DNA from: an uncultured Clostridia bacterium
GTDB taxonomy: Bacteria; Bacillota; Clostridia; Christensenellales; UBA1242
NCBI GenBank assembly: GCA_944362545.1
Contig: CALVTJ010000001.1
Coordinates: forward strand, 64,500-128,499
Reading direction: 5' to 3'
Length of the DNA: 64,000 bases
A program made the position numbers and the translations under genes. This document shows, in pieces, positions 22,801 to 61,911 of the stretch. Under the pieces are notes generated by a model. It worked only from the letters and a program-made list of their open reading frames with translations, did no database searches and was not told where the DNA came from. Every line of letters begins with the position of its first letter. The first letter of the stretch is position 1.

Positions 22801-25086
22801 TTCTGAAAGCAAATAAATGTTTGTGTCGCCTTCACTGATGGCAAAAATGTCATCGTTTGCGCTGCCGACTGTGAGTTGATAACTTGTTATATTAGGCACG
22901 TTTTCCACACGAACAAAATAGCCCGAACTTGCCGTAAATCCACTATGGTTGACATACTGTTGATCAAAACCAAACTCCACTGCGCCATTGACAAGTTTTT
23001 CGGCAATATAGAAGACATCCTGCATATATTCAGTCGATGAAATAAATTGATTTACATCACCAGAAGTAGCAAAAATTCTTACATAAAAATATCCCACATT
23101 TTCAAAGGTATAACTTGCGCTTTGTGCTTCCCTTTCAACAGGCGAAAGCGAAGAGATATCAACATTGATTTCGCTTTGGTTTGCTTGATATGTACCTTTA
23201 TCAATTTGGTAGATTTGCAACTGATAACCCGAAGCATTCTCCACTTCGTTCCAAACATATGTTTTGTCAGTGCTGTCTCCACTGTCTGCAGAAATAGGTG
23301 CTGAAAGCAAGGTCAAATCTTTGAGTTTTGATGAGCCTATTGCGGTCAAGTCATCCGCTGTTTTTGCAACAACTCTAAGCCTAAATACCATGTCATCTTC
23401 AACCAAAACAGGTTCAAACAGATTTTCAATCTTGTTTGTCAATGTGATTGTCACGGTTTGTCCTTGCACAGAAGCATCGTATTCCCCTTGTGAAACTTCT
23501 TCAAAATCTGTGCCATTCCAAATTTCAAGAGTGTAAGTATCCGCATTATTCACAACATCAAATGTCAAAACTGAAGAATTATCGCCATAAGAGTGCGTTA
23601 TCTCGCTTGCAAAAGCCTCGGCCTTTGTAATATGCAAAACTTGACTTACATCAGAGTTTATCACCAAGACATCCTGACCAGAAAGTTGGTTAAATTCACT
23701 TCTTGCCATTGCATAAACCGACAAATCAAAACTGCCCGACTGATTTATTGCAATTTCAATGTCCTTTGAAAGTTCGTCCGCATCAAGTCCATCAAGCACA
23801 ACATTGTCACCAAGACCTGTGACAAGAATGTCTCCATTTAAAAGACTGCTTGTGGTGGATACTTGCGCCTTGAAAGTTGCGCCATCAAGTTCGTTTTCTC
23901 CACGACCAACAAAATTCAAACTTGGCATTTTGAAGATTCTTCCAACAACTGTTTCATTACTTTGATAAAACAATCCGCTTTCATTTTTTGCCACAACGCT
24001 TGCCTGATAAACGCCACTTGCAAGTCCGTTTAAATTGGTGTAACTTTCACCAGAAAATTCCTCAAAAGAAATAGTGTAGTCTTCTTGATTTTCTTCATCG
24101 CGCAAGATAATATCATATTTTTCCACACCTTCTGCGGTTTCAATCTGCACAAGTCCGCCTGCGGTTTGAGAATAAACATATTGTGCAGTCGGAGCAGCAA
24201 GTTTTTCAATCTCAATAACATCGCTCTCACGCGCTATCTTCTCACCGGCATTGTCAAAGACAAGAACAGACACTTCATGAGTTCCCGCTTGTGCAACACT
24301 GAAGAAAGATGACAAATCTTTGCTTAAAGTGCTCTGCCTGTCATCCAACAGCACCCCATCCATTCTAACTTGATATTCTGCTCCTGCAATCGCACTCCAA
24401 GAAAGAGTCCCTCTTTCTGCATCCCAGATCAAATCATCCGCTGACAGCCTGTCCATATATCCAAAGTAGAGCGTTGGAACTTGTGAAGGTTCACTGTTAT
24501 CAAAATAGCCATTTCCTTGTGCTGTGACAGTCAAAGCATAGGTGCCATAATTTGAAAGAGTAATACTGTTTGTGTTTGTCACTTCATTTATGTTCAAAAC
24601 TTCCACTTCCTGATCTGGAGAGTCCGGCTGGAAAGTGGTGCAAGTGCCTTCAACCACATAACTTTGTGCCAAGGTTGGGTTTTGCTCATTTTCGAAAAAA
24701 CCAGAAACGACATCCCAAGTCAAAACGCCACTTTCATCCAATGAAAAGTTTTTAGGAGAATCAAATTGTTTTTTTACAACAACCTGCATGGAAGCAAGAC
24801 TGTTGTTTTGATATGTAGCATATATGTTTGTTCTGCCAGAAGAGATTGCAAGTGCACTGTCACCTTGAACCTGCAAAATTGAAGTGTTTGAAGGTTGGAA
24901 AGAAATGTCAGTTTTTTCAACTCCTGAAACTGACAGATAATCCTGCAAATTTATTGACTCATTCACAGAAAGGAGAACTTCGCTTTGTGAAAAGGAAGCC
25001 TGCGGACTTTTGAAAGAACAGGAAGCAAGCACACTCCCCATTGCAATAGTCAAAACTGACATCAAAATCAAACTCAACTTTTTCAT
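13885..25086 (-). CDS. Giant (3733 aa) surface lipoprotein with many FN3/Ig-like modules and a C-terminal GLUG-like beta-helix region
   Basis: This is an uninterrupted 11.2 kb ORF. The signal peptide and lipobox read MKKLSLILMSVLTIAMGSVLASC. There are at least 12 recurring modules of the type 'L(S/T/Y)W..V..A..Y.V', for example LSWSAIAGAEYQVRMDG, YVWNEVENASGYQLQIY and LSWDEIANSDGYILKMF. The C-terminus has 'GDGTSENPYRIVNEEQFKNIAK' followed by repeats such as QVAGIVNTN and YIAGVADYG. Confidence 0.85.
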   Translation of the reverse strand: MKKLSLILMSVLTIAMGSVLASCSFKSPQASFSQSEVLLSVNESINLQDYLSVSGVEKTDISFQPSNTSILQVQGDSALAISSGRTNIYATYQNNSLASMQVVVKKQFDSPKNFSLDESGVLTWDVVSGFFENEQNPTLAQSYVVEGTCTTFQPDSPDQEVEVLNINEVTNTNSITLSNYGTYALTVTAQGNGYFDNSEPSQVPTLYFGYMDRLSADDLIWDAERGTLSWSAIAGAEYQVRMDGVLLDDRQSTLSKDLSSFFSVAQAGTHEVSVLVFDNAGEKIARESDVIEIEKLAAPTAQYVYSQTAGGLVQIETAEGVEKYDIILRDEENQEDYTISFEEFSGESYTNLNGLASGVYQASVVAKNESGLFYQSNETVVGRIFKMPSLNFVGRGENELDGATFKAQVSTTSSLLNGDILVTGLGDNVVLDGLDADELSKDIEIAINQSGSFDLSVYAMARSEFNQLSGQDVLVINSDVSQVLHITKAEAFASEITHSYGDNSSVLTFDVVNNADTYTLEIWNGTDFEEVSQGEYDASVQGQTVTITLTNKIENLFEPVLVEDDMVFRLRVVAKTADDLTAIGSSKLKDLTLLSAPISADSGDSTDKTYVWNEVENASGYQLQIYQIDKGTYQANQSEINVDISSLSPVEREAQSASYTFENVGYFYVRIFATSGDVNQFISSTEYMQDVFYIAEKLVNGAVEFGFDQQYVNHSGFTASSGYFVRVENVPNITSYQLTVGSANDDIFAISEGDTNIYLLSENFAQGNTEISITVVGHADDEMIYVATDPTVLTVERLGQVTFEDLDIDQLTSRVTLKQKDGVTGGRIWYNDGNVSDRDDAYPSLNISSLNDFSLLFTLYGTKLNEEGIYQATDDKIYLDSMESTLQFARLQAPTNFRYYDGKLTFDHDAISIADYYVLDLNCITPNGDNLLTIRLDDTVIVQYEGQEIQLAVGSDVVSYSGTAITINLDTLVEQLKANEQISGVYNQSTEIDFSVYAYVIENDSSVIYLSSPYASVYGNSASTSLKVEKMITPQIEFAYSDTDYTLSWQAVETEETVASETSYQVFLDDEPFGSSIVSGLSYNFANTSFNLSTYYTFYIKAENPYYLESANSNTITIYRLSRIPRVTLTADGNLSYEIATAERDFVENVKVDALLSTSSNTSGLVEITGSGNYTFTVIGRTIENENSATHYLDSAPSTWTLTEMDTLAPSDNNVTFSNNLLSWNAFGANAGIGSLSYLVIFRDTTGKTVTYNTTDTTLNLQDNTELYQSISALAAGDIEIGVSAYLLGNGTYTVVAGGTVYYSLDVELLNGNTENHHYLYTSDQTVTKLATPNVTKVEFVYSGLENAQFPDIQVSFVGNYGNSGRFSIYLNDSDFPIMTTNIAQSDGTYTFTLTREYYNNTIQPGQTLTVKIMALSDTAIPSSSGIVEITRVVDLQSVAFKENEDKFTQNLVLTFNPDNLDFSQGGVNLQISYQPASGEQQTEYRHVDVNSVSESLTYDMSEFFEEYLADGGTIQISAYIASFADDENKIYYLPAPTLVTSQTYNVLKQVEQVTHSDGGFVIDSSLNNANTVYVVQYGASRFEVPADRNGEFYFEFPNSWANGSYELEIFASENDYINSVINVVSFQLNRIASVDVVTMERDVDNMATVTLSWDEIANSDGYILKMFAKTDTEHSAPLYVFNSADYDAEHGTQGASDGKVVYTLEQIFGRNFEDLIAYDKLTAFDLMSDIEVVFDLVTIGGSGYNNSFALTFNATVKGNPVQTTDIIVDEFGRIAFTSVAGTSYMYRLVDSTGDTELQGWQVIEATSASTTLNVSSEIATGVLFNVEIIVVGSAIESPATSADFDFVLDSMPLTTVGNDLTFIVNESIVDVGYNENIPSLLAFTMISNSFTKLYVGLEENAIMSGDVFGFVPAYFSDADTDMQSIHSYSLGEIINGLIEQGCDINLNDNFKLYFWSYRTSASITGSYVISKAYEFTFALTSENSFKEIMKVGDLGEDSVYPEDYANTFAVFNNNDSADLQTIGIFVRITHIADDNAGDFTSIKFRSSQQMTGHAYFEGQNVYVINLTSMFEEEDLFTMSGTFEVAFSRLQVQSSDDKIILTDWFEGGDENSFTFEKLPEVQNLRLSAGSLYWDISGEKTDKYYVYFIIDLNGNILGERYNYFATASSSFNASDFVGTENQYYIAVQSISENPFLLPSNRVFIVDVAEGSNEPVLVRKNQVTSPIKLQDGKLYIDWSEDGDFYRELTGDGSFEDIAKTITSEMFSSPFTFSLQQLVDDNITMRLRFTPLTSGNEGMRKIFDVNAKYLLASLLDFGTENDYDIEGRLNEIYTNASDSSTRNLIGEFRENIVNRGSFGVANAQVLFDDIFEALQTGSYRMEYCLIGSNVTLSSSWYEFKNNNGENVIYVNGEPSVSARKVENPTDISINSYQVLVRKSQIYDYVGGSYSLMDAQGYNMVVYDDAGNRFVFAITKGITNWSLTLLDEDVEGSVSVYETDASGTTTENGPYLMFYLNQNNGNSIMGRYNSVVQSGHTYKMQIYAVGTNFSTSSKSEFFSLTLLGFNDTFAINNGQFVWGSVNNRKTSVIYKKNTSSQEEVTEIDGTMATSTFSLNGLGNGLYDYIKFVLFGEVRAQSIFVDSEIYIVENVYKLASPTLNNNYGYIGIDDSANISMLGIDSPDHSASICYSDGSLYNYVLYNSDENETIYFSDQNSASEIVYYEAGTTGMDVTHPDYEYKSTEEVAREFHVVSLGTTAGFEIEDDESAYYLKHIYCLDIETGEKSDKSVAVRSEVATIHASMLDTLSNVWIENGILHWDDVTGKAGDEPMTIPSTDRADIIYKVTVVQYVPSSTEGGETETNVGQEYYYYTTENFFDFTIINEDQIVVTDDTSYLKATVQALALNVTDTLPTGAYVSLVEGGYAYGNLQYADSDIYILMGNGAILRQIDRLAPVDEGSLQVRDGSLYWTYTTTNSITDEDMFFQQYDFIVMDEDGNEVSGQLVVDAIYQQQETSTNVFSIRFVEDAGAMQDGTQVLTVYTTQGRQNDDVIIKSFGRTIEVTKLRTITSDDYTITSQGGLETLDMSAYFTDNNSNTVRININIVSHGEPVEEREIEFNISQYKLYILRSEDDVKLISSYPEFYVTQYIVISEDQIAQITFEVENLMIANTIYSDVSEQFTLQRSNWGADSKIVWDEENQVFTWNYGGYYSFNSSPEADKVSEGNVLTEQVTLYTDSQMQESADIILEAGTVVSVEDVQDGVATIMYESMIYYISESSYEWQRFVVETETLDSSTMFTVVANEGENTLIEVGGDRYLVATSAIIQPVYIIEVTYGAEPNQIVRTYTTTETQFAPSIITDQIRISVSVKLGDTNIQSQELVYTSDEGTDFVAFNLFESGDGTSENPYRIVNEEQFKNIAKRMKKDNVLVNYVENGREVNEEEQYYFLIESDLVLSENGNTETYINGILFAGEFEGIIEGNGSTITYISSGVAPLSQDVLVAEGHVLGPSTETSTTYRYGSSLFETLASGSAISNLQINASFLSSNNSYIPHHSLIASLAITNGGRLDNINLVGFSSNFIGRSTPGTRVIMIYSGIVSRNTGSVARISNSTVSTDMTINDGNQAQLIFVSGIAFINYATIEDCSVGGDSETHNIMYVTFQERTGTAQVAGIVNTNTTAGTIRNCANYFNISVECTQAGNSMAVYIAGVADYGRGTLESVANYGTLNTRNISENNLHQGDVSI

Positions 25087-36445: not shown

Positions 36446-36483
36446 ACAAAAAAAGGAAGAACAAAAATCGAATTGTTCTTCTT
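36446..36483 (-). terminator. Terminator ending the ESCRT-III/Vps4-like operon
   Basis: The 11-bp hairpin has arms at 36454-36464 and 36473-36483 with one mismatch. On the minus strand it is followed by a T7 run, about 30 nt after the stop at 36511. Confidence 0.6.
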
Positions 36484-36510: not shown

Positions 36511-39500
36511 TTATCTCAATTTAGGATAATCCTCTTCCAAAATTTGCCAAATGTTTTCATCAAAGTTCAATCTTGAATCATAAAACTGTCCAAAAGCCAA
36601 GTTGATGCACGAGTCATCACGAGCATAACTTGTTTTTTGAGCGCTTATTTGCAATGTTGAATTTGTAAAGCATCTCTCTGCCCTTCCATCAAGATAGCCA
36701 AACAGACTTCCAACATTGACCGTTTGCTTTTCTTCATCTGTGACAAATGTGATGAGAGAATAACTTGTTGTGACAGTGTCGGTGTAGTTTGTGTTTTGAT
36801 AACTTCCGTAAAGTCCGCCAGCATAAACACTTCCAACAAAACCTGAAAGGTCAACTGTGCCGGTTGTGAGATTGTTTTGACTGCTTGCTCTGCCATATCC
36901 AACAAGTCCGCCGACATAAGCGTTTTCTGCGCTGCCAGAGAGTGTGATGTCGGCATGACTTTCATTTTGTTCAAATGATAAATCATTTCTATCAATGTGC
37001 AAAACTTCGCCGACAAGTCCGCCGATATTCATGTTTTGTGCATTGTTTGCATTTATCGCAAGATTGCCCGTGGCATTGTTATTTTCAACAATCACTCTGT
37101 CATTTCCACCACTTACTCTGCCGGCAATTTCGCCTACGGATAAATTTCCGTTTTCAATGGTGATTGTGATGTTAAGTCCAACAAGACAATTTTCAATATC
37201 GCCGTTTTGAACAGCCCCGGCAATTCCGCCAACCACTGCCGTTGTCTGAAAGTTTAATGTGATGTTGCCACTAACCGTGCAATTTTCAATAAGTCCATGA
37301 TTGGAAATAGCAAAAGAGCCAAAGTTTGTCGCATTTTGATAGGTCATATCCGCCAAGACAAGATTGAGATTTTTTATCTGTCCATTGTTGCGGTCAAAAA
37401 GTCCCAAATTTTTGCCATCTCTGAATGTGACCTTTTCAATGGTGTGTCCATCGCCATCAAGCACTCCACTAAATGCCCCACCGCTCCATGTTGCACCATC
37501 CAAATCTATGTTTTCTGTCAACTTGAAGTTTGCCGAAGGTGCATTTGCAAGAAGCACTTTCAACTCGTGTACATTGGAGATTTCCATTGTGGTTGGGAAA
37601 AGATAAAGTCCGCATATTGTCAAAATTAAATTGAGTCCCGCAAAGCAAAAAAGTGCACAATTTGCCACATTCCAACCTTTTGAAACGCGGTATCTTGTCT
37701 TGATAAAAACCACCAAATTAACCATGCCCACAAGTGTAGACAAAATCACCAAAACAATCAAAAATGTTTGATTGAAATACAAAAACACTTCTTTTGGCAA
37801 AGCAATAGTAATCACCAACAAAAGCGTTGTGAAAAGGATTGGAAAAAGTTCCAAGAAGCCATATAAAAACTTCTTCAAAAACTTGTCGTTCTTGATATCC
37901 TTAATGCGTTTTTTGTGTCGTGCTTCGCTCTGCTTTTCTGTTTCATAGACATTTTTTAGACCCTCATCTCTACCAAGCAAGTCCACCACATTGATAGATG
38001 TCTCAAGAGTCAAATTCAGGGCATCAAGACGGGTGTTTATCTTGGAGATAATATCACTATAAGCTGAAAATTCTTTGACATCTTTTATCTCTTCCGCGTA
38101 TTTTTCAAAAGGTTGAAGTTGAAGTTTGTAATAATTCACTCCACGCAAAACCTTGTCTCCTTCCTGCTTTTGCATATCCAACAAAACGGTGTTGTTTCGT
38201 GCGACAAAGTCCTGAAGTTTTTCTATCAAATGCACCTTGTCAAGCAAGTCAGCTTTTATTTTCACTTTTTCGCCAGAATACAAACTTATCTTGCTGGCGA
38301 TTTCGGCATATTTTTCGGTCTGTTTTTCATCCGCAACCGAAAGCATTGTCTCCCATTCAGGCATCTGTGTCACTTTGATGCCTGACATGATAAGTTCGTT
38401 GTCATTTTTGCAATGTGCTTTGATTTTTACCAGCATCCAATAAAATTCGGCGTTGTTTTTGTCTTTGGAGATGGCAATGGCAAGATATTTTTCTGCCTGC
38501 TTAAAAAAACCCGAATTTTGAAAATATTCAGCAATTTTGACAAGCAATTTGCACAAACTTTCATCATCGTTGACATATGAAAGATAAAAATCAATCTGTT
38601 TCTCTGCCTTTTCAATATCAAAAAAGGCAATCGGCAAAATCATGTCCACGACCGCTGATACAAATTGCGTGCGCGTGGCAGGAGACAAAAACTTGAAGAC
38701 ATCTTCCACCGTTTCTCTGTCACGAAAATTCAATTTGTCCTCATCGGTTTTGAAATGTTGAAGAAGAAGAGTGATGTTGCTTTGTTCATGTCCGGCATCG
38801 AGTTCCAAAATTTTTTGATAATATTTTTTGTCATCACTCTTTTGTGCCAGCATGAAATAAAATTGCACAAACCTGTCCACTTCATCATTCTTGAAACATT
38901 TGATAACCTTTTCAATAAGTTCTTCATTCAAAGTCTCAACCGCTCTTTGTTCGGCATGATTGATAAAGTTTTCGCGATTTGGCGAGTTGAAGCTTGCAAG
39001 ATAAAGCAAAAAAGCGTTGTAATATTCTTCACTGTCAAGTTTGATAATCAAATTTTCCCAACTGTCGACAAATGATTCGGCAAATTCTTTTGAAGCATAC
39101 TTCAAAATTTTGTCAATTTTTTCTTTGTCGCGAAAGTTTCCAATGCTAGAGAAAAATTCTTCCTGCGATCTTATATTATTTTCAATCAAAAGGTCGGCAA
39201 AGAGAAGTTCAGCATTATTTTCATCCTTTTCAAGACCTTGGTCAACAAGTTCCTTGGCTGAAGCAAAATCACCATTTTTGATGGTTAAAAAAAGCCATTT
39301 TATTTTGTTCTCATCCGAAAGTGGAACATTTTCCACTTGATAATGTCCCAGGTCTGTCGGTGTGACAGTTTGAACATCAACATATTCTTTCTTTTGTGGC
39401 TTGATGGTGTCAAGGTTCACCGTGTCAATTTTGGCAAGTTCAATGTCCGCATTGTCCACTTCCTTTTTGACCTTAACTTGAATGTCTTGCAAGAAAGAAA

Positions 39501-40326
39501 TTGCATTCATGTCAACAACACTCTTGCAAGGCAACAATTCCTTCGGAAAATCTTCTTCTTTGATTTTTTGCCTGTCGCAAGCAATTACAAAACTGCTTTT
39601 TGTCTTTTTCTTCTGTGATACAAAAAACAGATAACGGTCAAAAAGATTTTTTATCTCGCCATAGCCAAATCCTTCTTTTTCGTTGGCAAACAAAACAAAA
39701 GCCTTTGCTGTCTGCAAAGCACGAAAGGTCTCTTCTTCTCTCTCTTTGTGTGCAAGGTCTTGCACAAAGTAAACTTCAAGTCCCTGATGTCTCAGACTTT
39801 CCACCGCTTTGGAAATCAAAGTGTCCTTTTCTTTGTTAAATGAGAGAGCAACCGCAACAACATCAAAGTGAAGTTTGCTCGCCTGCTCTGTGTAGAGATT
39901 TTTGATTTTTTCAATGCGTTTTGCTTGGTCATTGTAAGTTTTTGCCACTTCCGGTGGAGCATTTTTTACGGCATTTAAAAAATCTTCATCCTGCAAAATT
40001 GAAGGGATTTCGTCACCAAAAAACCTTGGTCTTTTCCCACCACCCTTGTGATTGGTGTAAAAAATTATCCTGTTTTTTGCAAGGCATTTTCCATAAAAAC
40101 CTTCAAACGATTTTGGATAAATGGTCAAAATCTTGTCAAACTCTTCTTTTGCACCATCAAAATCGCAATCACGCAATTTTTCATATGCACCAACGATCAA
40201 AAATTCTTCTTCTTTAGAGGCGCGTTCATCGACATACAAAGTGCCACAAAACATGCATTTGACCATGTTTTGCCCAACTACTTTATATAATCTTCCTCCA
40301 CAATTTTTGCATACACGCTCTCTCAA
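36511..40326 (-). CDS. 1271-aa multidomain membrane protein: N-terminal zinc ribbon, helical/TPR-like repeats, 3 TM helices, extracellular GLUG-repeat domain
   Basis: CKNCGGRL...CMFCGTLY forms a zinc ribbon, followed by long helical repeat regions. Three hydrophobic helices lie at about aa 838-925 (ELFPILFTTLLLVITIAL, FLIVLVILSTLVGMVNLVVFI, ALFCFAGLNLILTICGLYLF). The C-terminal region has NIGGLVGEV, YVGGLVGYG and YAGGLYGSY (GLUG). The start is a TTG 7 nt after GGAG. Confidence 0.8.
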   Translation of the reverse strand: MRERVCKNCGGRLYKVVGQNMVKCMFCGTLYVDERASKEEEFLIVGAYEKLRDCDFDGAKEEFDKILTIYPKSFEGFYGKCLAKNRIIFYTNHKGGGKRPRFFGDEIPSILQDEDFLNAVKNAPPEVAKTYNDQAKRIEKIKNLYTEQASKLHFDVVAVALSFNKEKDTLISKAVESLRHQGLEVYFVQDLAHKEREEETFRALQTAKAFVLFANEKEGFGYGEIKNLFDRYLFFVSQKKKTKSSFVIACDRQKIKEEDFPKELLPCKSVVDMNAISFLQDIQVKVKKEVDNADIELAKIDTVNLDTIKPQKKEYVDVQTVTPTDLGHYQVENVPLSDENKIKWLFLTIKNGDFASAKELVDQGLEKDENNAELLFADLLIENNIRSQEEFFSSIGNFRDKEKIDKILKYASKEFAESFVDSWENLIIKLDSEEYYNAFLLYLASFNSPNRENFINHAEQRAVETLNEELIEKVIKCFKNDEVDRFVQFYFMLAQKSDDKKYYQKILELDAGHEQSNITLLLQHFKTDEDKLNFRDRETVEDVFKFLSPATRTQFVSAVVDMILPIAFFDIEKAEKQIDFYLSYVNDDESLCKLLVKIAEYFQNSGFFKQAEKYLAIAISKDKNNAEFYWMLVKIKAHCKNDNELIMSGIKVTQMPEWETMLSVADEKQTEKYAEIASKISLYSGEKVKIKADLLDKVHLIEKLQDFVARNNTVLLDMQKQEGDKVLRGVNYYKLQLQPFEKYAEEIKDVKEFSAYSDIISKINTRLDALNLTLETSINVVDLLGRDEGLKNVYETEKQSEARHKKRIKDIKNDKFLKKFLYGFLELFPILFTTLLLVITIALPKEVFLYFNQTFLIVLVILSTLVGMVNLVVFIKTRYRVSKGWNVANCALFCFAGLNLILTICGLYLFPTTMEISNVHELKVLLANAPSANFKLTENIDLDGATWSGGAFSGVLDGDGHTIEKVTFRDGKNLGLFDRNNGQIKNLNLVLADMTYQNATNFGSFAISNHGLIENCTVSGNITLNFQTTAVVGGIAGAVQNGDIENCLVGLNITITIENGNLSVGEIAGRVSGGNDRVIVENNNATGNLAINANNAQNMNIGGLVGEVLHIDRNDLSFEQNESHADITLSGSAENAYVGGLVGYGRASSQNNLTTGTVDLSGFVGSVYAGGLYGSYQNTNYTDTVTTSYSLITFVTDEEKQTVNVGSLFGYLDGRAERCFTNSTLQISAQKTSYARDDSCINLAFGQFYDSRLNFDENIWQILEEDYPKLR

Positions 40327-40338
40327 ACTTTTTCTCCG

Positions 40339-41490
40339 TTAATTCTTTGTCGTTTTTGTTGATTTCTTGTCTCTGATAAGACTTCCCATTTCTTTGTTGT
40401 ATTCTTCAAATTGTTTTAGTTCTTTTTCAGTCACACTTGGTGGCATCTTTGACAAAACACCATCAAAATCTTTGTTGGTCACCAAAATTATGCTGTCGGT
40501 GGCAATCGCTTTCAAAAGAGGTTCATCCTTTGCTCTATCACAAAGTTCATCAATGTCTGCACCGCTATACATCTCGGTCTGTGCAACAATTCTATCCACA
40601 TCAAAATCTTCTGCCACCGGCACGCCCTTCATGTTTTTTTCAATCATAAACTTTCTTGCCGGAGCATCCGGAAGTGGTATGTAAATTTTCTGCGAAAATC
40701 TGCCCGAACGCAATGCCGCGCTGTCAATGTCCCATGGCCTGTTTGTTGCACCAAGCAAAAGCAGGTTTGGATTTCTCCCCGCAAATCCATCAATCTGTTG
40801 CAAAAACTCGTTGACACGCTTGTCATTGTGTGTGTCTACTCCGCGTTTGCCAATCAAACTGTCCATCTCATCAATAAAGATGATGGACCTGTCCTGTTTG
40901 TTTGCTTCTTGAAAGAGAGAATTGATGTTTTTCTCACTGTCTCCGACCCACTTGCTGACAATGTCAGAACCCTTGACAGCATAAAACTTTGCGCCAACTT
41001 CGTTGGCAATCGCCTTGGCAATCATGGTCTTTCCCGTGCCCGGCGGACCATATAAAAGCACTCCACCACCTGTTTTTTTGCCGTAGAGTTTGTATTTGTC
41101 TGGATATTTGATTGGATTTATCATCCTAATTGTTATTGCCTTTTTAACATCATCAAGCCCAGCAACATCGGCAAACTTGACATTTGGAATTTGTGCCGTT
41201 TGCCACTTTTTGATGTCTTCATCTTCTTCAGTGTTTTCATCATCTTTTTTGTTTATTTTTTCCGGTTTTTTATGCAAATTTTCGGCAATGTCTACAAGTC
41301 GACGCGCTCTGTCCATGCGCACTTCTTTCAACTTGCCCGCACTCTGTTTTGCCATTTGCATCATCGTTTCACTTGCCAGCAAAAAGTTTCGCTTTGCAAG
41401 TGTAAGATTGCCTCTGTCCTTTGCTTCTTTTCCTTTTTTCATGTAAAGATTGAAGGTGTCAGAAAGCACATTCATGTTTGTTTCTTTCAC
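40339..41490 (-). CDS. Vps4/CdvC-like AAA ATPase with N-terminal MIT-like domain
   Basis: The N-terminal ~75 aa are helical: YMKKGKEAKDRGNLTLAKRNFLLASETMMQMAKQ...RMDRARRLVDIAENL, which is MIT-like. The AAA elements are Walker A GPPGTGKT, SKWVGDSEK, Walker B IIFIDEMDS, and second region of homology LLLGATNRPWDIDSAALRSGRFSQKIYIPLPD. The C-terminal VTNKDFDGVLSKMPPSVTEKELKQFEEYNKEMG resembles the Vps4 C-terminus. There is no TM segment and no protease domain. Confidence 0.8.
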   Translation of the reverse strand: MKETNMNVLSDTFNLYMKKGKEAKDRGNLTLAKRNFLLASETMMQMAKQSAGKLKEVRMDRARRLVDIAENLHKKPEKINKKDDENTEEDEDIKKWQTAQIPNVKFADVAGLDDVKKAITIRMINPIKYPDKYKLYGKKTGGGVLLYGPPGTGKTMIAKAIANEVGAKFYAVKGSDIVSKWVGDSEKNINSLFQEANKQDRSIIFIDEMDSLIGKRGVDTHNDKRVNEFLQQIDGFAGRNPNLLLLGATNRPWDIDSAALRSGRFSQKIYIPLPDAPARKFMIEKNMKGVPVAEDFDVDRIVAQTEMYSGADIDELCDRAKDEPLLKAIATDSIILVTNKDFDGVLSKMPPSVTEKELKQFEEYNKEMGSLIRDKKSTKTTKN

Positions 41491-41519: not shown

Positions 41520-42128
41520 CTATTCATCCTTGTTTGATGTTTCAGCATCAATCTTTTTGCGCACCTCTTCCATTTCTTTGTCGATGTTTTCGCTTGAGAG
41601 TTCATCCTGTGAAGCCTGTTCCATGATAAACTTTTCAAGTTCTTCATCTGACATCTGCTTTCCACTCTTGTCGACACCTTGATTGTAAAAGGTCTCCTGA
41701 CTCATCTCCATAAAGTTGTCCATTTGGTCGGTTTGAATTTCCACCGCTGCCATAGCCTCTTCAAATTGCGCCTGAATCTTTGCAAATTCTTTCGCATCAG
41801 CAAGTTTTGTCATCTCTTTGCTGATTTCACTCATTCCACGCAAAAATTCGGATGTCATCATGGTCACATCCTTCATCTGTGCGGTAATTTCAAAGTTCAA
41901 AAGCATCTCTTGTGCGCGCTTTTGTTGTTGGAGTGTCATTTTGTAGCCACTGAGTGCCAACTTAAACTGTGCGTCAAGCCCTTTAAGTTTTGCTCTCTTT
42001 GCCGCATCAATAAACACCTGCTTTTGGTCTTCAAGTCTGTTGATTTGCTTGTTCATTGAATTGATTGTGCGCTTGATAAGCATCTTCTTTTCAATTTCTT
42101 TTTGTTGTTTTGATTTAAAAAGTCCCAT
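41520..42128 (-). CDS. ESCRT-III (Snf7/CHMP)-like protein, CHMP2/3-like paralog
   Basis: The 202-aa all-helical ORF starts MGLFKSKQQKE..., like CHMP3 MGLFGK (from memory). It has a basic N-terminal half and an acidic C-terminal half. ...DAAKRAKLKG...FEITAQMKDVTMMTSEFLRGMSEISKEMTKLADAKEFAKIQAQFEEAMAAVEIQTDQMDNFME... aligns by eye with CHMP2/3 core helices. The tail SENIDKEMEEVRK is MIM1-like. A GGAGG RBS is present. Confidence 0.65.
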   Translation of the reverse strand: MGLFKSKQQKEIEKKMLIKRTINSMNKQINRLEDQKQVFIDAAKRAKLKGLDAQFKLALSGYKMTLQQQKRAQEMLLNFEITAQMKDVTMMTSEFLRGMSEISKEMTKLADAKEFAKIQAQFEEAMAAVEIQTDQMDNFMEMSQETFYNQGVDKSGKQMSDEELEKFIMEQASQDELSSENIDKEMEEVRKKIDAETSNKDE

Positions 42129-42131
42129 TTT

Positions 42132-42746
42132 TTATTCCTCCATTTTTGCTTTTTTCTTTTTTTGTGGTTCTTCTTTTTCTATTTCTTGTGAGAGTTCTTG
42201 TTCTTCATCAAGTTGATTTTCTTTTTCAAACATACTCAAAATTTCTTCTTCACTCTTTCCAACTCCATAGATTGGTTGATTTGTCTCATATGCCGATTGC
42301 ACTTCGTTGAAAAGTTCATCCGCACTTGTCAAAACATCTTCGCTGGAGATTCTCGTTTCAAGTGCTTTGTTTAAAAATTTGGCAAGTTGTTTCTGGTCAT
42401 GCAAAAGTTCGCTGAGAGGAACTTTGGTCTGCGTCTTGAAAAAAGTGTTGCTGTCATAGGCATCTTTGAGTTTGTTCATCAACCTTATGTTGTACAGCAA
42501 ATACATCCCCCTTTCCATGCAAGTTTGCTTTTCTTCGTTTAAGTGAGCAATCTTTTTGGCAATGAAAAGTTGCAAATCGCGGTTCTTTTCATGCTTCCCC
42601 TTTTCCACTAAAGCATCAATCTCTTTGATTTTTTGATAAACTTCCGCCTCCGCTGTGCGTTCTTGGCGTTCAAGTTCCAAAATTGAATTGACAAGGTCCT
42701 CGCGCTTTATGTTCTTAAATTTGTTTCGTCTAAATGGCCACCACAT
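42132..42746 (-). CDS. ESCRT-III (Snf7/CHMP4)-like protein, second paralog
   Basis: The 204-aa helical ORF has the N-terminus MWWPFRRNKF (compare yeast Snf7 MWSSLFGW, from memory). ...LELERQERTAEAEVYQKIKEIDALVEKGKHEKNRDLQLFIAKKIAHLNEEKQ... follows the Snf7 helix-1/2 pattern, and the tail is acidic. An AAGGAG RBS is present. Confidence 0.55.
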   Translation of the reverse strand: MWWPFRRNKFKNIKREDLVNSILELERQERTAEAEVYQKIKEIDALVEKGKHEKNRDLQLFIAKKIAHLNEEKQTCMERGMYLLYNIRLMNKLKDAYDSNTFFKTQTKVPLSELLHDQKQLAKFLNKALETRISSEDVLTSADELFNEVQSAYETNQPIYGVGKSEEEILSMFEKENQLDEEQELSQEIEKEEPQKKKKAKMEE

Positions 42747-42760
42747 TTGCCTTTCTCCTT

Positions 42761-43120
42761 TTAATAATTATCGCCTATATTTATCGTTCGAATCCTTTCA
42801 AGCAGTCCTTCGTATATCTTCTTTTGATTTTCATCCGCAACTTCCAACGCTTTTTCACATTCCGGCAAGTAAATCGCCATTTTGTAAGTCATTGGATTGG
42901 AGTAGAGTTCATCCTCATTTCTGAGTTGAAATTTGACAAGCATAAGTCCCCACCAAGCATCCGCACATTTGTCATCATATTGCAATGCAAGGTCAAAATT
43001 GATTTTTGCCTGTTCAAACATTCCATCGGCAAGGTTTAAATAACCAAGTTTAAGTTCGTTCAACACTTTGATTTTTTCACTTTCCGGCAAGTTTGAAGAT
43101 GTTTGATAAGTCCTTTTCAT
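42761..43120 (-). CDS. Small TPR-repeat protein
   Basis: The 119-aa ORF has a TPR-like segment, GMFEQAKINFDLALQYDDKCADAWWGLMLVKFQ. Its start overlaps the upstream stop (ATGA). Confidence 0.55.
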   Translation of the reverse strand: MKRTYQTSSNLPESEKIKVLNELKLGYLNLADGMFEQAKINFDLALQYDDKCADAWWGLMLVKFQLRNEDELYSNPMTYKMAIYLPECEKALEVADENQKKIYEGLLERIRTINIGDNY

Positions 43121-43521
43121 TCAGCCTGTTCTTCCTTTTTTCTTTGCACTATATATGCTTCAATCTCTTCAAGCACACGAAAACAAGTCTCTTGCGTGTT
43201 GTCTTTTGCCACCATGATTTTCAGGTCATCAAGTTTGTTTGCAATTTTGTTGTCAATCAAAAGCACCTTTGAATTTGTGGTTGGATTGAAAAAACGAATA
43301 TTGTCTTTCACTTCAACAAGCCTGTTGCAAAGAGTGTCATTTCCGTTTGCATAAACCAAAATGCTCTCCACATTTGCCACCATGTTTTCGATATTCTTTT
43401 TGTTTCTAACAATCCCCCGACTGCCTTCTTCTTTTTCATTTTTCTTGCCATATTCTCGCCAAATATAGAAAATTGCCAAGCCGACCACCGCCAACAGAAT
43501 GATTATATAAAACGCTATCAT
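43117..43521 (-). CDS. Single-pass membrane protein with cytoplasmic helical domain
   Basis: The 134-aa ORF has an N-terminal TM helix, IAFYIIILLAVVGLAIFYIW. It is joined to both neighbours by ATGA overlaps. Confidence 0.5.
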   Translation of the reverse strand: MIAFYIIILLAVVGLAIFYIWREYGKKNEKEEGSRGIVRNKKNIENMVANVESILVYANGNDTLCNRLVEVKDNIRFFNPTTNSKVLLIDNKIANKLDDLKIMVAKDNTQETCFRVLEEIEAYIVQRKKEEQAE

Positions 43522-44360
43522 ACATCCTCCTTTGAAAGTTTTTCACCACAAGATGAACAAAACTTGGCATCATCTGGATTTTCCGCAAAACACTTTGGAC
43601 ATTTTTTGCCGATTTCCACACGATTTCCACAAACCGAACAGAATTTGTCGTTCTCTTTCAAAACCGCTCCACATTTTCGGCAGACAAAGTTGTCTGTCTT
43701 TTTGATTTGTTTGTAAGCCCTGTCAAGTTTGTCACAGTCCTCTTTTTCAATGATAATGTTTGCAATATTGAAAGAAAAAACCGTGATGCCATACTCGCTC
43801 AAAAGGTTTTGCCCAAGAATGCGCAAAACCTTGTTTGCAATTTCTTTTTTGCAGAGAGTCAGTTGGTTGAAAAGCACCTTGTTTTGTTCGACATAGTTTG
43901 TCACAACATCTTCCAAAATCGACACAACATTTGACATAAGTCGCTCTTGCAAGACATCACTTGTCAGATCGTTTGCCACACCAACAAGATAGAGATAACA
44001 CTTTCTCGGGTCTCCAATCTGCACTTCAAAATCTCCACTCATGCCCACATGATAATTTTCTTGCAAAAGGCCATCGAACATCAAAAACTTGTTTGCCGTG
44101 CCCCACAAAAGTTTGAGTTTCGCGGTTTTCGACATGAACAGAATTTCGATTTTGCAGTCGCTTTCGGTTTTGATATCAACAAACTGTGTGATGAGATATT
44201 TTCCAGATGAGAGTGTTTGAAGCATCTGCCCATCCTTAACCAAAATGGCATTATGTGTTTCTGGCACAATAAGTGTCACCTTTGGGTTTAGATTGTTTAC
44301 AACAATTCTCGAAAACAACTGCTGATTGTTTCCTGTGAAGGTAATAAGATTTTGTTCCAT
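43518..44360 (-). CDS. YdjI/COG4260-like SPFH-type protein with two C-terminal zinc ribbons
   Basis: The N-terminal region (...LIVPETHNAILVKDGQMLQTLSSGKYLI...) resembles the 'virion core protein-like'/SPFH family that includes B. subtilis YdjI. The C-terminus has CRKCGAVL..CSVCGN and CPKCFAEN..CSSCGE. The ATG at 44360 lies 8 nt after AAGGA. Confidence 0.6.
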   Translation of the reverse strand: MEQNLITFTGNNQQLFSRIVVNNLNPKVTLIVPETHNAILVKDGQMLQTLSSGKYLITQFVDIKTESDCKIEILFMSKTAKLKLLWGTANKFLMFDGLLQENYHVGMSGDFEVQIGDPRKCYLYLVGVANDLTSDVLQERLMSNVVSILEDVVTNYVEQNKVLFNQLTLCKKEIANKVLRILGQNLLSEYGITVFSFNIANIIIEKEDCDKLDRAYKQIKKTDNFVCRKCGAVLKENDKFCSVCGNRVEIGKKCPKCFAENPDDAKFCSSCGEKLSKEDV

Positions 44361-44377
44361 CAAAAAATCCTTTTTGC

Positions 44378-44432
44378 AAGAAGATATACTTCTTCACTTA
44401 AAATTATAGCAAAAAGATTTTTCAAAAGTCAA
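44378..44432 (-). promoter_or_regulatory. Candidate promoter of the 7-gene operon (TTGACT-18-TGcTATAAT) with a 5'-UTR inverted repeat
   Basis: On the reverse strand, TTGACT is at 44432-44427, the spacer is 18 nt with a TG extension, and TATAAT is at 44408-44403. A perfect inverted repeat AAGAAG-ATATA-CTTCTT at 44378-44394 lies between the predicted TSS and the RBS. Confidence 0.45.
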
Positions 44433-59910: not shown

Positions 59911-61911
59911 ATGTCAAAAAAATTAAAAACCTTTCTTATATCTGTGCTTGTGCTTGCTGTCATTGGTTATATCGCTGGTGTGTGCTTGCACTACTTTACA
60001 CAAAATCCGGACAGTTTCACCGACTCATTAGGCACGGACTATGCCTTTGTTGGTGCTGGCGTTGGTGCCGTGGCTGGACTTTTGTATACCTTTGCTTCAA
60101 AACCTAAAAAACAGGAAGACAAGAAAGAATCCAAAGGAAAAACCGCAAGTGGCGTAGAAATGGATTTGAGTTATGATGCAAAATGGCTCAAGGCGGAAGA
60201 CATTTCAAAAAAGTTTGGACTTATCTCAACAAACTGGCAGTCCCTTCCATCCCTTAAAAAAACTGGCATTGTGTTTAGAAACAGCATTGAAGGACACAGT
60301 TATCAAATTGCCATGAAGGATGAATATCACTGCTTGGTTATCGGAACAACCGCATCCGGAAAAACCTCTTTGATTTTGATTCCTTCTATAAGAATTTATG
60401 CTCACTCTGGCGAAAAACCGTGCATGGTCATCTCCGACCCGAAAGGTGAACTTTATCAAAAAACCGGAAAGATCGTGGAAGATGAAGGCTATCGCGTTAT
60501 CACACTAGACTTGCGTGACCCATTTTCATCCACTCGCTGGAACCCTATGGAACACGCCTATGACCTTTATCACCAAGCGTTAAATTGCAAAAGCAATATT
60601 AAAAAATGCACCAACGGCACAAGACCCAAAAATGCAGGATATCAAGAAATCCCTGGTGAAAACTACGGCAAAGAATGGTTTGGTTTTGAAGGAGTGGCAT
60701 ATCCAAATGAAGAATCTTTGCGACAAGCAGTGAGAAGTGCCGAGCAGATTTATCGCGATATGGCACAAACCGAACTTCGTGAAATCTGCAACACAATTGC
60801 TCCAAAATCAAAAGCACAGGACCCAACTTGGGAAGAAGGCGCACAAGACTTTTTGTATGGATGTGCACTTGCTATGCTTGAGGACAGCGAAAATCCAGAA
60901 CTTGGCATGACCAAAGAAAAATTCAATTTTTACAATCTTTACAAAATTGCGACTTTCCGTGACCCTGATGCAGATGCTCCATTTGAAACCTTGAAAAAAT
61001 ATCTTTTGCAAGGTAGAGATGCCGAAAAATCAAATGTTCCAAACATGACATCAAATGTGGTCAACAATGCACCAAACACCACAAAGGGTTATCTTGGAGT
61101 TTTGAATGGCAAAATCTCCTTCATGAACGACATGGGTATTGCTTATTTGACTTCGCAAAGCGACATCAATTTTGATGACTTCACAAGCAAGCCAACTGCC
61201 TTCTATCTTATAATCCCAGATGACAGAGAAGAGCGTCACAACCTTGCAATTTTGTGTATATCACAACTCTACAAGAGACTTGTTGACAAGGCAAACTCCT
61301 ATCCAGACAAAAGACTGCCACACCATGTTTACTTCATTTTGGAAGAGTTTGGAAACTTGCCACCAATTCCAAAATTTGACAGCATGATCACTGTCTCGCG
61401 TGGAAGAAACATCTTGTATGAAATGGCAGTTCAATCTTACACCCAACTTGAAACCAAATATGGCAAAGATGCTTCCAGCACAATTCTTGGAAACTGCAAC
61501 GCCAAAATCTTTATCGGAACGGATGACCAGCCAACTCGCGACAGTTTTTCAAAAGACTGCGGAGAAGTACAACTTATGCACGAAGAAAAGAGCACAAGCA
61601 CATCCAAAACCGACAAGGACAAAGATGGAAAGAGCACAAGCACATCGGTGCAAACTCAAAGAACAACCCGCCCACTTATCACATCTTACGAACTTGGGCA
61701 ACTTCCGTTTGGAACGGTTATTGTCAAGTTATTTAGATATGACCCGATGAAATTGACTCCAACAAGATATGACAAAGTGCCGTTCTTCTATCCAAAAGAA
61801 GCCGAAAAACCGGTTGGCATCATGAGAAGTTTGGACACACAAAAAGTTTATTATGATATCAAAATGAGAAACAAGAAAATTTTGAAAAACACAAATCCTT
61901 TTGATTTTTAA
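59911..61911 (+). CDS. Type IV secretion/conjugation coupling protein (VirD4/TraG/TraD family)
   Basis: Two N-terminal TM helices are followed by Walker A GTTASGKTS and a Walker B-like VYFILEEFGNLP. The length of 666 aa and overall pattern are typical of Firmicutes T4CPs. Confidence 0.8.
   Translation: MSKKLKTFLISVLVLAVIGYIAGVCLHYFTQNPDSFTDSLGTDYAFVGAGVGAVAGLLYTFASKPKKQEDKKESKGKTASGVEMDLSYDAKWLKAEDISKKFGLISTNWQSLPSLKKTGIVFRNSIEGHSYQIAMKDEYHCLVIGTTASGKTSLILIPSIRIYAHSGEKPCMVISDPKGELYQKTGKIVEDEGYRVITLDLRDPFSSTRWNPMEHAYDLYHQALNCKSNIKKCTNGTRPKNAGYQEIPGENYGKEWFGFEGVAYPNEESLRQAVRSAEQIYRDMAQTELREICNTIAPKSKAQDPTWEEGAQDFLYGCALAMLEDSENPELGMTKEKFNFYNLYKIATFRDPDADAPFETLKKYLLQGRDAEKSNVPNMTSNVVNNAPNTTKGYLGVLNGKISFMNDMGIAYLTSQSDINFDDFTSKPTAFYLIIPDDREERHNLAILCISQLYKRLVDKANSYPDKRLPHHVYFILEEFGNLPPIPKFDSMITVSRGRNILYEMAVQSYTQLETKYGKDASSTILGNCNAKIFIGTDDQPTRDSFSKDCGEVQLMHEEKSTSTSKTDKDKDGKSTSTSVQTQRTTRPLITSYELGQLPFGTVIVKLFRYDPMKLTPTRYDKVPFFYPKEAEKPVGIMRSLDTQKVYYDIKMRNKKILKNTNPFDF

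Follow-up and report, generated by a model that had tools for sequence, protein, structure and literature searches.

Does a bacterium encode, in one operon, an ESCRT-III protein and the ATPase that would take its polymers apart? The question is raised by a 64,000-nucleotide stretch of DNA from an uncultured Clostridia bacterium (contig CALVTJ010000001.1), here called the window, in which all positions are counted. A 202-amino-acid (aa) protein and a 204-aa protein, for which we use the working names E202 and E204, are encoded there on the minus strand together with a 383-aa ATPase. A first-pass annotation, made from the letters of the DNA, had described E202 as CHMP-like, its tail as a relative of the MIT-interacting motif MIM1 and the start of the ATPase as the MIT-like domain that reads this tail. 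The elements concerned are the following:

41520 to 42128, minus strand: E202, a Snf7/ESCRT-III-family protein, CHMP2-like (family profile, Pfam, AlphaFold2 [AF2], Foldseek)
41598 to 41648, minus strand: predicted helix alpha5 of E202, aa 161 to 177 (AF2 and conservation)
41529 to 41591, minus strand: predicted terminal helix alpha6 of E202, aa 180 to 200, a candidate MIT-interacting helix (AF2 and conservation)
41556 to 41594, minus strand: MIM1-like motif, aa 179 to 191 of E202 (translation)
40339 to 41490, minus strand: 383-aa MIT-AAA ATPase of Vps4-like architecture (Pfam, NCBIfam, motifs)
41281 to 41475, minus strand: MIT-like three-helix bundle, aa 6 to 70 of the ATPase (AF2, Foldseek, Pfam in orthologs)
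42132 to 42746, minus strand: E204, a second helical protein (hhalign to the E202 family, motif conservation)

Our answer is a graded one. It is very probable that the cluster encodes a functional module of ESCRT-III and MIT-AAA proteins, and we lean, with some reserve, toward the terminal helix of E202 as the ligand of the MIT domain. The full picture, a complete operon-encoded Snf7-type ESCRT-III/MIT-AAA machine in Bacillota (Christensenellales, Haloplasmataceae, Izemoplasma) and other bacteria that is recruited via a MIM1-like, charge-swapped tail, is put forward tentatively, and we rate its chance as a little under even.

E202 is a divergent member of the Snf7/ESCRT-III family

E202 belongs to a divergent Snf7/ESCRT-III family that is nearest to the CHMP2/3/1 class. 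As a single sequence, E202 gave neither a Pfam match at E ≤ 0.1 nor a sequence match in the PDB. An exhaustive homolog search with E202 returned 326 cluster representatives, and 72 of these were combined into the family profile A1. Compared with the PDB, this profile matched human CHMP2A (E = 3e-6), CHMP3 (E = 0.02), CHMP1B (E = 0.09) and CdvB (E = 1.3); PspA and Vipp1 were not among the matches. Furthermore, the Pfam family Snf7 (PF03357) was matched by 32 of the 72 members, with a best E-value of 9.6e-7. As the single sequence has no match and the family profile and its members do, E202 is placed in ESCRT-III at the family level, on a divergent branch.

The AF2 model of E202, with a mean predicted local distance difference test score (pLDDT) of 86.6, has five helices in ESCRT-III order (model residues 6 to 47, 51 to 106, 111 to 148, 160 to 176 and 179 to 199, where model residue i is protein residue i + 1). 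The order agrees with the ESCRT-III fold, in which a long alpha1-alpha2/3 hairpin precedes alpha4, a linker and alpha5, with or without alpha6. In a Foldseek search with this model, ranks 1 to 6 were taken by Sulfolobus islandicus CdvB (9s9k, 9s9j) and CHMP1B with probabilities of 0.51 to 0.98 (0.93 to 0.98 for the top ranks), and structures of PspA and Vipp1 appeared further down the list. An NCBIfam match of E202 to VapB15 was dismissed as noise (19.6 bits compared to a cutoff of 80).

A predicted MIT domain on the neighboring ATPase

The open reading frame (ORF) of the ATPase begins 29 nt 3′ of the E202 ORF, with an AGAGG ribosome-binding site ahead of it. Pfam recognized the domains AAA (E = 5.3e-43), AAA_lid_3 and Vps4_C (25.6 bits; cutoff 21.3). 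Together with the N-terminal domain described below, they make up the Vps4 layout of MIT, one AAA module, a lid and a C-terminal helix. Walker A (GPPGTGKT), Walker B (IIFIDE) and the pore loop (KWVG) are intact in the translation, and a regular expression search found the same motifs in orthologs.

According to the AF2 model, the N terminus of the ATPase folds as a MIT-type three-helix bundle (helices 6 to 25, 29 to 49 and 52 to 70; pLDDT 96 to 98 over aa 11 to 70), which is followed by a disordered acidic linker. The model was based on a shallow alignment of sequences with 65 to 85% identity; a further search with the MIT profile A3 returned only 21 short N-terminal fragments, which hardly widened the diversity. 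Nine of the ten best Foldseek matches were MIT domains, with probabilities of 0.94 to 1.0 for 2w2u (Sulfolobus CdvC MIT with CdvB), 2cpt, 1yxr (VPS4A MIT, root mean square deviation 1.4 Å), 2jq9 (the VPS4A MIT-CHMP1A complex), 4u7i, 2k3w and 4u7y. The Pfam MIT profile (PF04212) was not matched by the ATPase sequence of the window; it was matched by 7 of 41 ortholog N termini, at best with E = 3.3e-6. The profile of the N-domain family gave weak matches to six different solved MIT domains in the PDB (E = 0.011 to 1.2).

Helices 2 and 3 of the bundle carry conserved basic residues (K33, 94%; R34, 97%; R58, 84%; R61, 94%) as well as the hydrophobic pairs M43/M44 and L65/V66. An hhalign comparison of the MIT profile with a VPS4A MIT sequence aligned helices 1 and 2 alone (E = 0.0012, probability 19%) and was used for the register of helix 2 only. 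From the VPS4A sequence and this partial alignment, V66 is the putative equivalent of L64 in VPS4A.

The E202-ATPase pair is conserved across genomes

A locus search seeded with the 10-sequence alignment A2 gave 80 species-level genome loci from Christensenellales, Coproplasma, Haloplasmataceae, Izemoplasma and Inordinaticella. In 79 of them, an ATPase with this N-domain is encoded 3′ of the E202 ortholog, at a distance of 60 nt or less in 58 of the 79. Even among relatives with 24 to 27% identity, three of four are directly followed by an AAA ATPase whose N terminus matches the MIT profile. E204 is found in 75 of the 80 loci. Its family profile (A5) aligned collinearly with that of E202 (A1) over 164 columns in hhalign (E = 3.7e-4, probability 36%), and E204 is probably a divergent ESCRT-III paralog. 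Since E204 is missing from some loci that keep E202 and the ATPase, we regard the E202-ATPase dyad as the core and E202 as the constant partner of the ATPase. Covariation of the tail and the MIT domain among 76 distinct pairs was not used as evidence, as joint change occurred only in Haloplasmataceae and Izemoplasma, two lineages in which it is phylogenetically confounded.

Three proposals of the first-pass annotation are thus borne out: the CHMP-like nature of the 202-aa protein, the MIT-like three-helix start of the adjacent ATPase and the side-by-side encoding of E202 and the ATPase, which is a lasting arrangement and not a property of this window alone.

The ATPase itself varies in architecture. 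In about one-quarter of the related loci, it is a protein of 646 to 731 aa that combines MIT with a SpoVK/CbbX-like AAA module (GNPGTGKT, VLFIDE) and a classical AAA module; these loci are among L047 to L080 (e.g., L047:7578-9671), with a further one at L088:6657-8810. The second AAA module had no KW pore loop in the four proteins checked (NQGVG in L047). Eleven more loci have forms of 437 to 535 aa, and the one of these that was read (L038) has a C-terminal extension.

The terminal helix of E202

Positions 41556 to 41594 of the minus strand translate to SENIDKEMEEVRK, exactly aa 179 to 191, and the C-terminal end of E202 reads ...QDELSSENIDKEMEEVRKKIDAETSNKDE. In this segment I182, M186 and V189 are spaced i, i+4 and i+7 and are followed by R190, with E185 at the position that is called R7 in MIM1. 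In the AF2 model, the motif lies inside the terminal helix (aa 180 to 200, pLDDT ~88 to 91), which comes after an acidic linker of low confidence. Just N-terminal of it, helix alpha5 has the conserved pattern D-x-E-[IL]-x-x-[LF]-I, in which E163 is acidic in 90% and L164, F167 and I168 are hydrophobic in 93 to 96%.

Taken alone, the motif says little. In its relaxed form, [ILMV]xxx[ILMV]xx[ILMV][KR], it occurs 1.27 times per 1,000 aa in the window ORFs of at least 150 aa, and 2 of 36 long window ORFs have it within their last 30 aa; 1.0% of shuffled tails and 4.2% of shuffles of the whole protein produced it within these 30 C-terminal residues. As this is weakly above chance, it is homology, structure and conservation that have to carry the case. 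Among 94 members with less than 70% identity to each other, a hydrophobic residue stands at position 182 in 94%, at 186 in 96%, at 189 in 99% and at 193 in 83%, and 80% have an acidic residue at position 183. Tails of close relatives read I-D/E-K-E-M/L/I-E-E-L/V/I-R/K-K-K-I, the consensus across loci is I-[DE]-[KR]-E-[LMI]-E-x-[LIV]-[KR]-K-[KR]-[IML], and the hydrophobic face of the helix is retained down to ~24% identity.

A model of E202 turnover

In our model, E202 would polymerize on the cytoplasmic face of a membrane. E204 would probably join the polymer, and an SPFH/zinc-ribbon protein encoded upstream may organize the site. The polymer would expose the flexible acidic linker and the terminal amphipathic helix of E202 (aa 180 to 200), and this helix would be captured by the MIT bundle of the ATPase encoded downstream. 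A hexamer of the ATPase, with its KWVG pore loops and driven by ATP hydrolysis, could then pull subunits out of the polymer, which would thereby turn over. Acidic residues surround the hydrophobic face of the tail and MIT helices 2 and 3 are basic, which suggests a charge-swapped type-1 contact: probably a relative of the MIM1-MIT contact in which the hydrophobic face would sit in a groove and the acidic tail would point toward the basic residues of helices 2 and 3. The cellular role may be membrane repair, vesiculation or division.

Weighing the model against its alternatives

Several findings weigh against this model. Foldseek E-values were at least 0.065 throughout for E202, with TM-scores of 0.26 to 0.42 for ranks 1 to 6, low values as are expected for hairpins that open and close; for the MIT bundle they were 0.06 to 0.4, which are high because the domain is small. 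The NCBIfam model of CdvC aligned with the ATPase from end to end (8 to 366 of 370) with 210.3 bits, far short of the cutoff of 650 for this equivalog model, and the AAA module alone scored 223.2 bits for CDC48, 203.9 for CdvC, 196.7 for FtsH and 191.7 for PAN. The best sequence matches in the PDB are to the D2 domain of p97. Since CDC48 scores higher than CdvC and the CdvC cutoff is missed, the ATPase is Vps4-like in architecture and no demonstrable Vps4 or CdvC ortholog.

Further objections concern the tail. MIM1 has a conserved Arg at position 7 of its consensus, and this diagnostic residue is Glu (E185) in the window and likewise in nearly all Christensenellales loci. A regular expression search for the strict consensus [DE]xxLxxRLxxL[KR] had no match anywhere. 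In the 94 members, acidic residues occupy position 185 in 48% and position 179 in 63%, and basic residues occupy position 190 in 48% and position 191 in 62% (the window has S179 and R190), so that MIM1 positions 1, 7 and 12 are conserved only to ~50 to 60% in the wider family; moreover, the spacing i, i+4, i+7, i+11 is generic for amphipathic helices. Of the earlier claims about the tail, its sequence and its place are confirmed, and the tail is conserved among homologs, with hydrophobic positions kept in 83 to 99% of members. Its match to MIM1 holds for the I/M/V spacing and for R190 in the window and fails at R7, as the first-pass annotation itself had said; in orthologs, the hydrophobic part of the I/M/V/R spacing is kept and the basic part is kept in about half. 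With the full MIM1 consensus weakly and the hydrophobic positions strongly kept, what the family conserves is the hydrophobic side of an amphipathic helix at the C terminus, for which a MIM-MIT reading is plausible.

What else could such a helix do? In the alternative that survives best, the ESCRT-III/MIT-AAA module exists, and the terminal helix is mainly an intrinsic element that could fold back for autoinhibition, pack subunits together or contact the membrane, while the MIT domain would read the IYG...DDELLAMFE segment of E204, helix alpha5 of E202 or another product of the operon. Some family members are fusions of 440 to 800 aa in which an N-terminal E202-like domain with its tail helix is joined by a long low-complexity linker to a RuvB-like (with or without NERD) or FtsK-like motor. 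They retain the helix, and their contigs carry no MIT-ATPase, and a role of the helix in packing or autoinhibition is therefore conceivable. These contigs are just 3 to 5 kb long, however, and a MIT-ATPase may be encoded elsewhere. The limitation of conservation to the hydrophobic face also fits this alternative, and the high pLDDT of the helix in the AF2 monomer would suit packing on the core. In eukaryotic ESCRT-III tails, autoinhibition and MIT binding are not mutually exclusive.

E204 is the other candidate source of a ligand. Its N terminus carries an MWWPF motif, and its C-terminal third (42132 to 42290, minus strand) has the motif N-x-x-I-Y-G-x4-[DE][DE]-x-L-L-x-[MI]-F-E, in which Y160, G161 and L170 are invariant in orthologs. 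Being more invariant than the tail of E202, this motif could, from its sequence, be an alternative ligand of the MIT domain, and it is likewise a candidate ligand for another operon partner. MIT domains take helical motifs in several modes, grooves and orientations (PMC9477494), which leaves room for such a contact. Nevertheless, Haloplasmataceae and some distant loci keep the E202-ATPase dyad without E204. On balance, we consider it unlikely, though well worth keeping in mind, that the tail is such an intrinsic element, and we keep the E202 tail as the preferred MIT ligand.

A more radical alternative takes the MIM1 resemblance as a coincidence and the ATPase as a Cdc48-like unfoldase or anti-phage ATPase that happens to lie beside a coiled-coil protein and acts on unrelated substrates. 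The motif by itself is indeed weakly above chance (1 to 4%), the AAA module scores best with CDC48, and PADLOC reported a match to IetA (E = 1.1e-38). Against this stand the homology of E202 to ESCRT-III, the specific MIT fold and the gene order with its short or overlapping junctions, which is shared by 79 of 80 loci and also kept in distant relatives. The IetA match reflects a similarity common to AAA proteins, and PADLOC matched none of the other genes of the cluster; a defense system was therefore rejected, and coincidence as a whole is very unlikely.

Comparison with known systems

The third alternative, that the proteins are PspA/Vipp1-type stress-response proteins and the ATPase is a PspF-like regulator, has in its favor the association of PspA loci with SPFH/Band-7 proteins (PMC10936438, PMC11237479) and the low-ranking PspA/Vipp1 matches in Foldseek, and is very unlikely, the least probable of the three: PspA_IM30 is not among the families that most members match and Snf7 is matched by 32 of 72, the A1 profile finds CHMP2A, CHMP3 and CHMP1B and neither PspA nor Vipp1, and in the ATPase, which is of the classical AAA type, the Pfam search found no significant sigma-54 activator or helix-turn-helix features. 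With those systems, the cluster shares a bacterial host, an ESCRT-III superfamily fold and an SPFH neighbor; in contrast to them, it pairs a Snf7/CHMP-type family with a MIT-AAA ATPase.

A close counterpart of the Snf7-type module is the Vps2-CHMP2/Vps4 pair of eukaryotes and Asgard archaea, in which the Vps4 MIT domain binds MIM1 of the Vps2/24/46 class in the type-1 mode. The core of E202 is nearest to CHMP2A, CHMP3 and CHMP1B in sequence; an amphipathic C-terminal helix follows an acidic linker and has hydrophobic residues at i, i+4 and i+7 and then a basic residue; and the predicted MIT bundle of the partner ATPase superposes on VPS4A MIT at 1.4 to 2.0 Å. The differences are the bacterial host, the change of the MIM1 Arg to Glu, an apparent swap of polarity (acidic tail, basic MIT helices 2 and 3) and an AAA module that is no Vps4 ortholog by score. 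Furthermore, the Pfam search of the cluster genes recognized no ESCRT-I or ESCRT-II genes.

The Cdv system of Sulfolobales likewise has an operon with a pair of ESCRT-III paralogs (here E202 and probably E204) beside a MIT-AAA ATPase, and the best structural matches of E202 and of the ATPase are CdvB (9s9k, 9s9j) and the MIT domain of CdvC (2w2u), respectively. Unlike Cdv, the cluster has neither CdvA nor a winged-helix domain and includes an SPFH/zinc-ribbon protein and a 1271-aa membrane protein. Crenarchaeal CdvB has a proline-rich MIM2 and no MIM1, and MIM1 has been treated as a feature of Asgard archaea and eukaryotes (PMC7240154).

In bacteria, a Vps4-like ATPase appears to be absent according to a review of 2025 (PMC7619361), and an operon of E202 with a MIT-AAA ATPase is an arrangement that recent reviews call absent from bacteria. 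Ravi et al. (2024) described bacterial genes for MIT plus Vps4-AAA that have a TPR plus 6TM protein in the place of snf7, and PspA or TM-Snf7 (anchored by a signal peptide or transmembrane segment) beside an ATPase with an inactive AAA and an AAA module, with no MIT noted for the two-AAA ATPases. The loci described here resemble these cases in their bacterial MIT-AAA ATPases, in Snf7-clade proteins beside AAA and in the two-AAA form of about one-quarter of them; they differ in that soluble Snf7-like proteins with a conserved tail are encoded directly 5′ of a MIT-AAA ATPase in Bacillota, a combination undescribed there. Our literature searches found no earlier description of the E202/MIT-AAA cluster.

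If our model is correct, the disassembly cycle of ESCRT-III tail and MIT-ATPase would not be limited to archaea and eukaryotes. The module could then be either an acquisition from archaea or eukaryotes that was rebuilt on a Cdc48-like AAA protein or a machine that bacteria put together independently along the same lines, and the RuvB- and FtsK-type fusions would be variants within the same picture. The operon would be a further case from which to judge at what time, and how many times, ESCRT-III and Vps4 became partners, and as a conserved bacterial operon it would be a genetically simple system in which the recruitment of a disassembly ATPase by an ESCRT-III tail can be tested. It would also be a candidate machine for membrane repair, vesicle formation or division in abundant uncultured gut Clostridia.

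Organization of the gene cluster

The dyad is part of a cluster of seven co-directional minus-strand genes that runs from ~44363 to 36511, with a promoter-like site and a terminator-like hairpin at its ends. In addition to the genes for E204, E202 and the ATPase, it comprises, in the order of transcription:

44403 to 44432, minus strand: promoter-like site 5′ of the first gene, TTGACT-18-TATAAT, TG-extended, 11 of 12 positions (a consensus match only)
43518 to 44363, minus strand: 281-aa SPFH/Band-7 protein with a C-terminal double zinc ribbon (Pfam Band_7_1, E = 1.1e-12; DZR, E = 1.4e-14)
43117 to 43521, minus strand: small protein of 134 aa whose N-terminal segment is hydrophobic (an ORF that is kept in close relatives)
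42761 to 43120, minus strand: 119-aa helical protein to which no family was assigned (an ORF confined to the Caccovivens-like clade)
36511 to 40326, minus strand: 1271-aa protein, the last gene of the cluster (an ORF; sequence reading and Pfam)
36456 to 36481, minus strand: terminator-like hairpin with T-run directly past the 1271-aa gene (a pattern match only)

The SPFH gene lies upstream in 73 of the 80 related loci. A Pfam search with the 134-aa protein gave no significant family match, and the 119-aa protein had a weak, sub-threshold NCBIfam match to PilW (17.7 bits; cutoff 154; E = 0.002). Read from its sequence, the 1271-aa protein has zinc-ribbon-like CxxC pairs near the N terminus, TPRs and several hydrophobic, probably transmembrane segments; its Pfam matches are weak (GLUG in the C-terminal part, E = 0.014, below the cutoff, and TIR_2, E = 0.032). 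Close relatives have a full-length homolog of it 3′ of the ATPase gene, and in distant loci 250 to 680 of its N-terminal residues recur near the dyad with 21 to 28% identity.

The ribosome-binding site of E202 (GGAGG) lies inside the last codons of E204 (AAA ATG GAG GAA TAA, encoding ...KMEE; 42129 to 42146, minus strand). The MEE at the C terminus of E204 is conserved in the Caccovivens-like clade, which may be due to this overlap and not to a function of the protein.

Fusion forms and distant relatives

The fusions of an E202-like domain to other motors, found on loci L081 to L084, are of two types:

RuvB_N plus RuvB_C, with or without NERD: P0283, P0293, P0296, P0312, P0348
FtsK_alpha plus FtsK_SpoIIIE: P0297, P0311, P0306, P0313, P0298

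Their domain content suggests that ring ATPases of several kinds are paired with the ESCRT-III-like domain. In L081, the FtsK fusion is followed by an SPFH-like gene. Genes for Ser/Thr protein kinases (Pkinase) were repeatedly found near distant family members (L082/L083, 402 to 2111; L085, 6918 to 8207; L088, 10659 to 12654), together with DUF6273 in L082/L083 and a PP2C phosphatase in L088; this neighborhood hints at control by phosphorylation in the kinase-associated lineages.

Host and remaining genes of the window

The window has a guanine-plus-cytosine content of 37% and holds genes that are usual on a bacterial chromosome (BipA, GluRS, pyruvate formate-lyase, MetK, ABC exporters). Near-identical homologs are found in metagenome-assembled genomes from the gut that are labelled Clostridia bacterium or Candidatus Caccovivens. 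A single giant ORF of 3733 aa occupies 13885 to 25086 on the minus strand. Near the right end of the window, a gene for a TraG/VirD4-type type IV coupling protein (59911 to 61911, plus strand; T4SS-DNA_transf, E = 3.5e-47) suggests a conjugative element.

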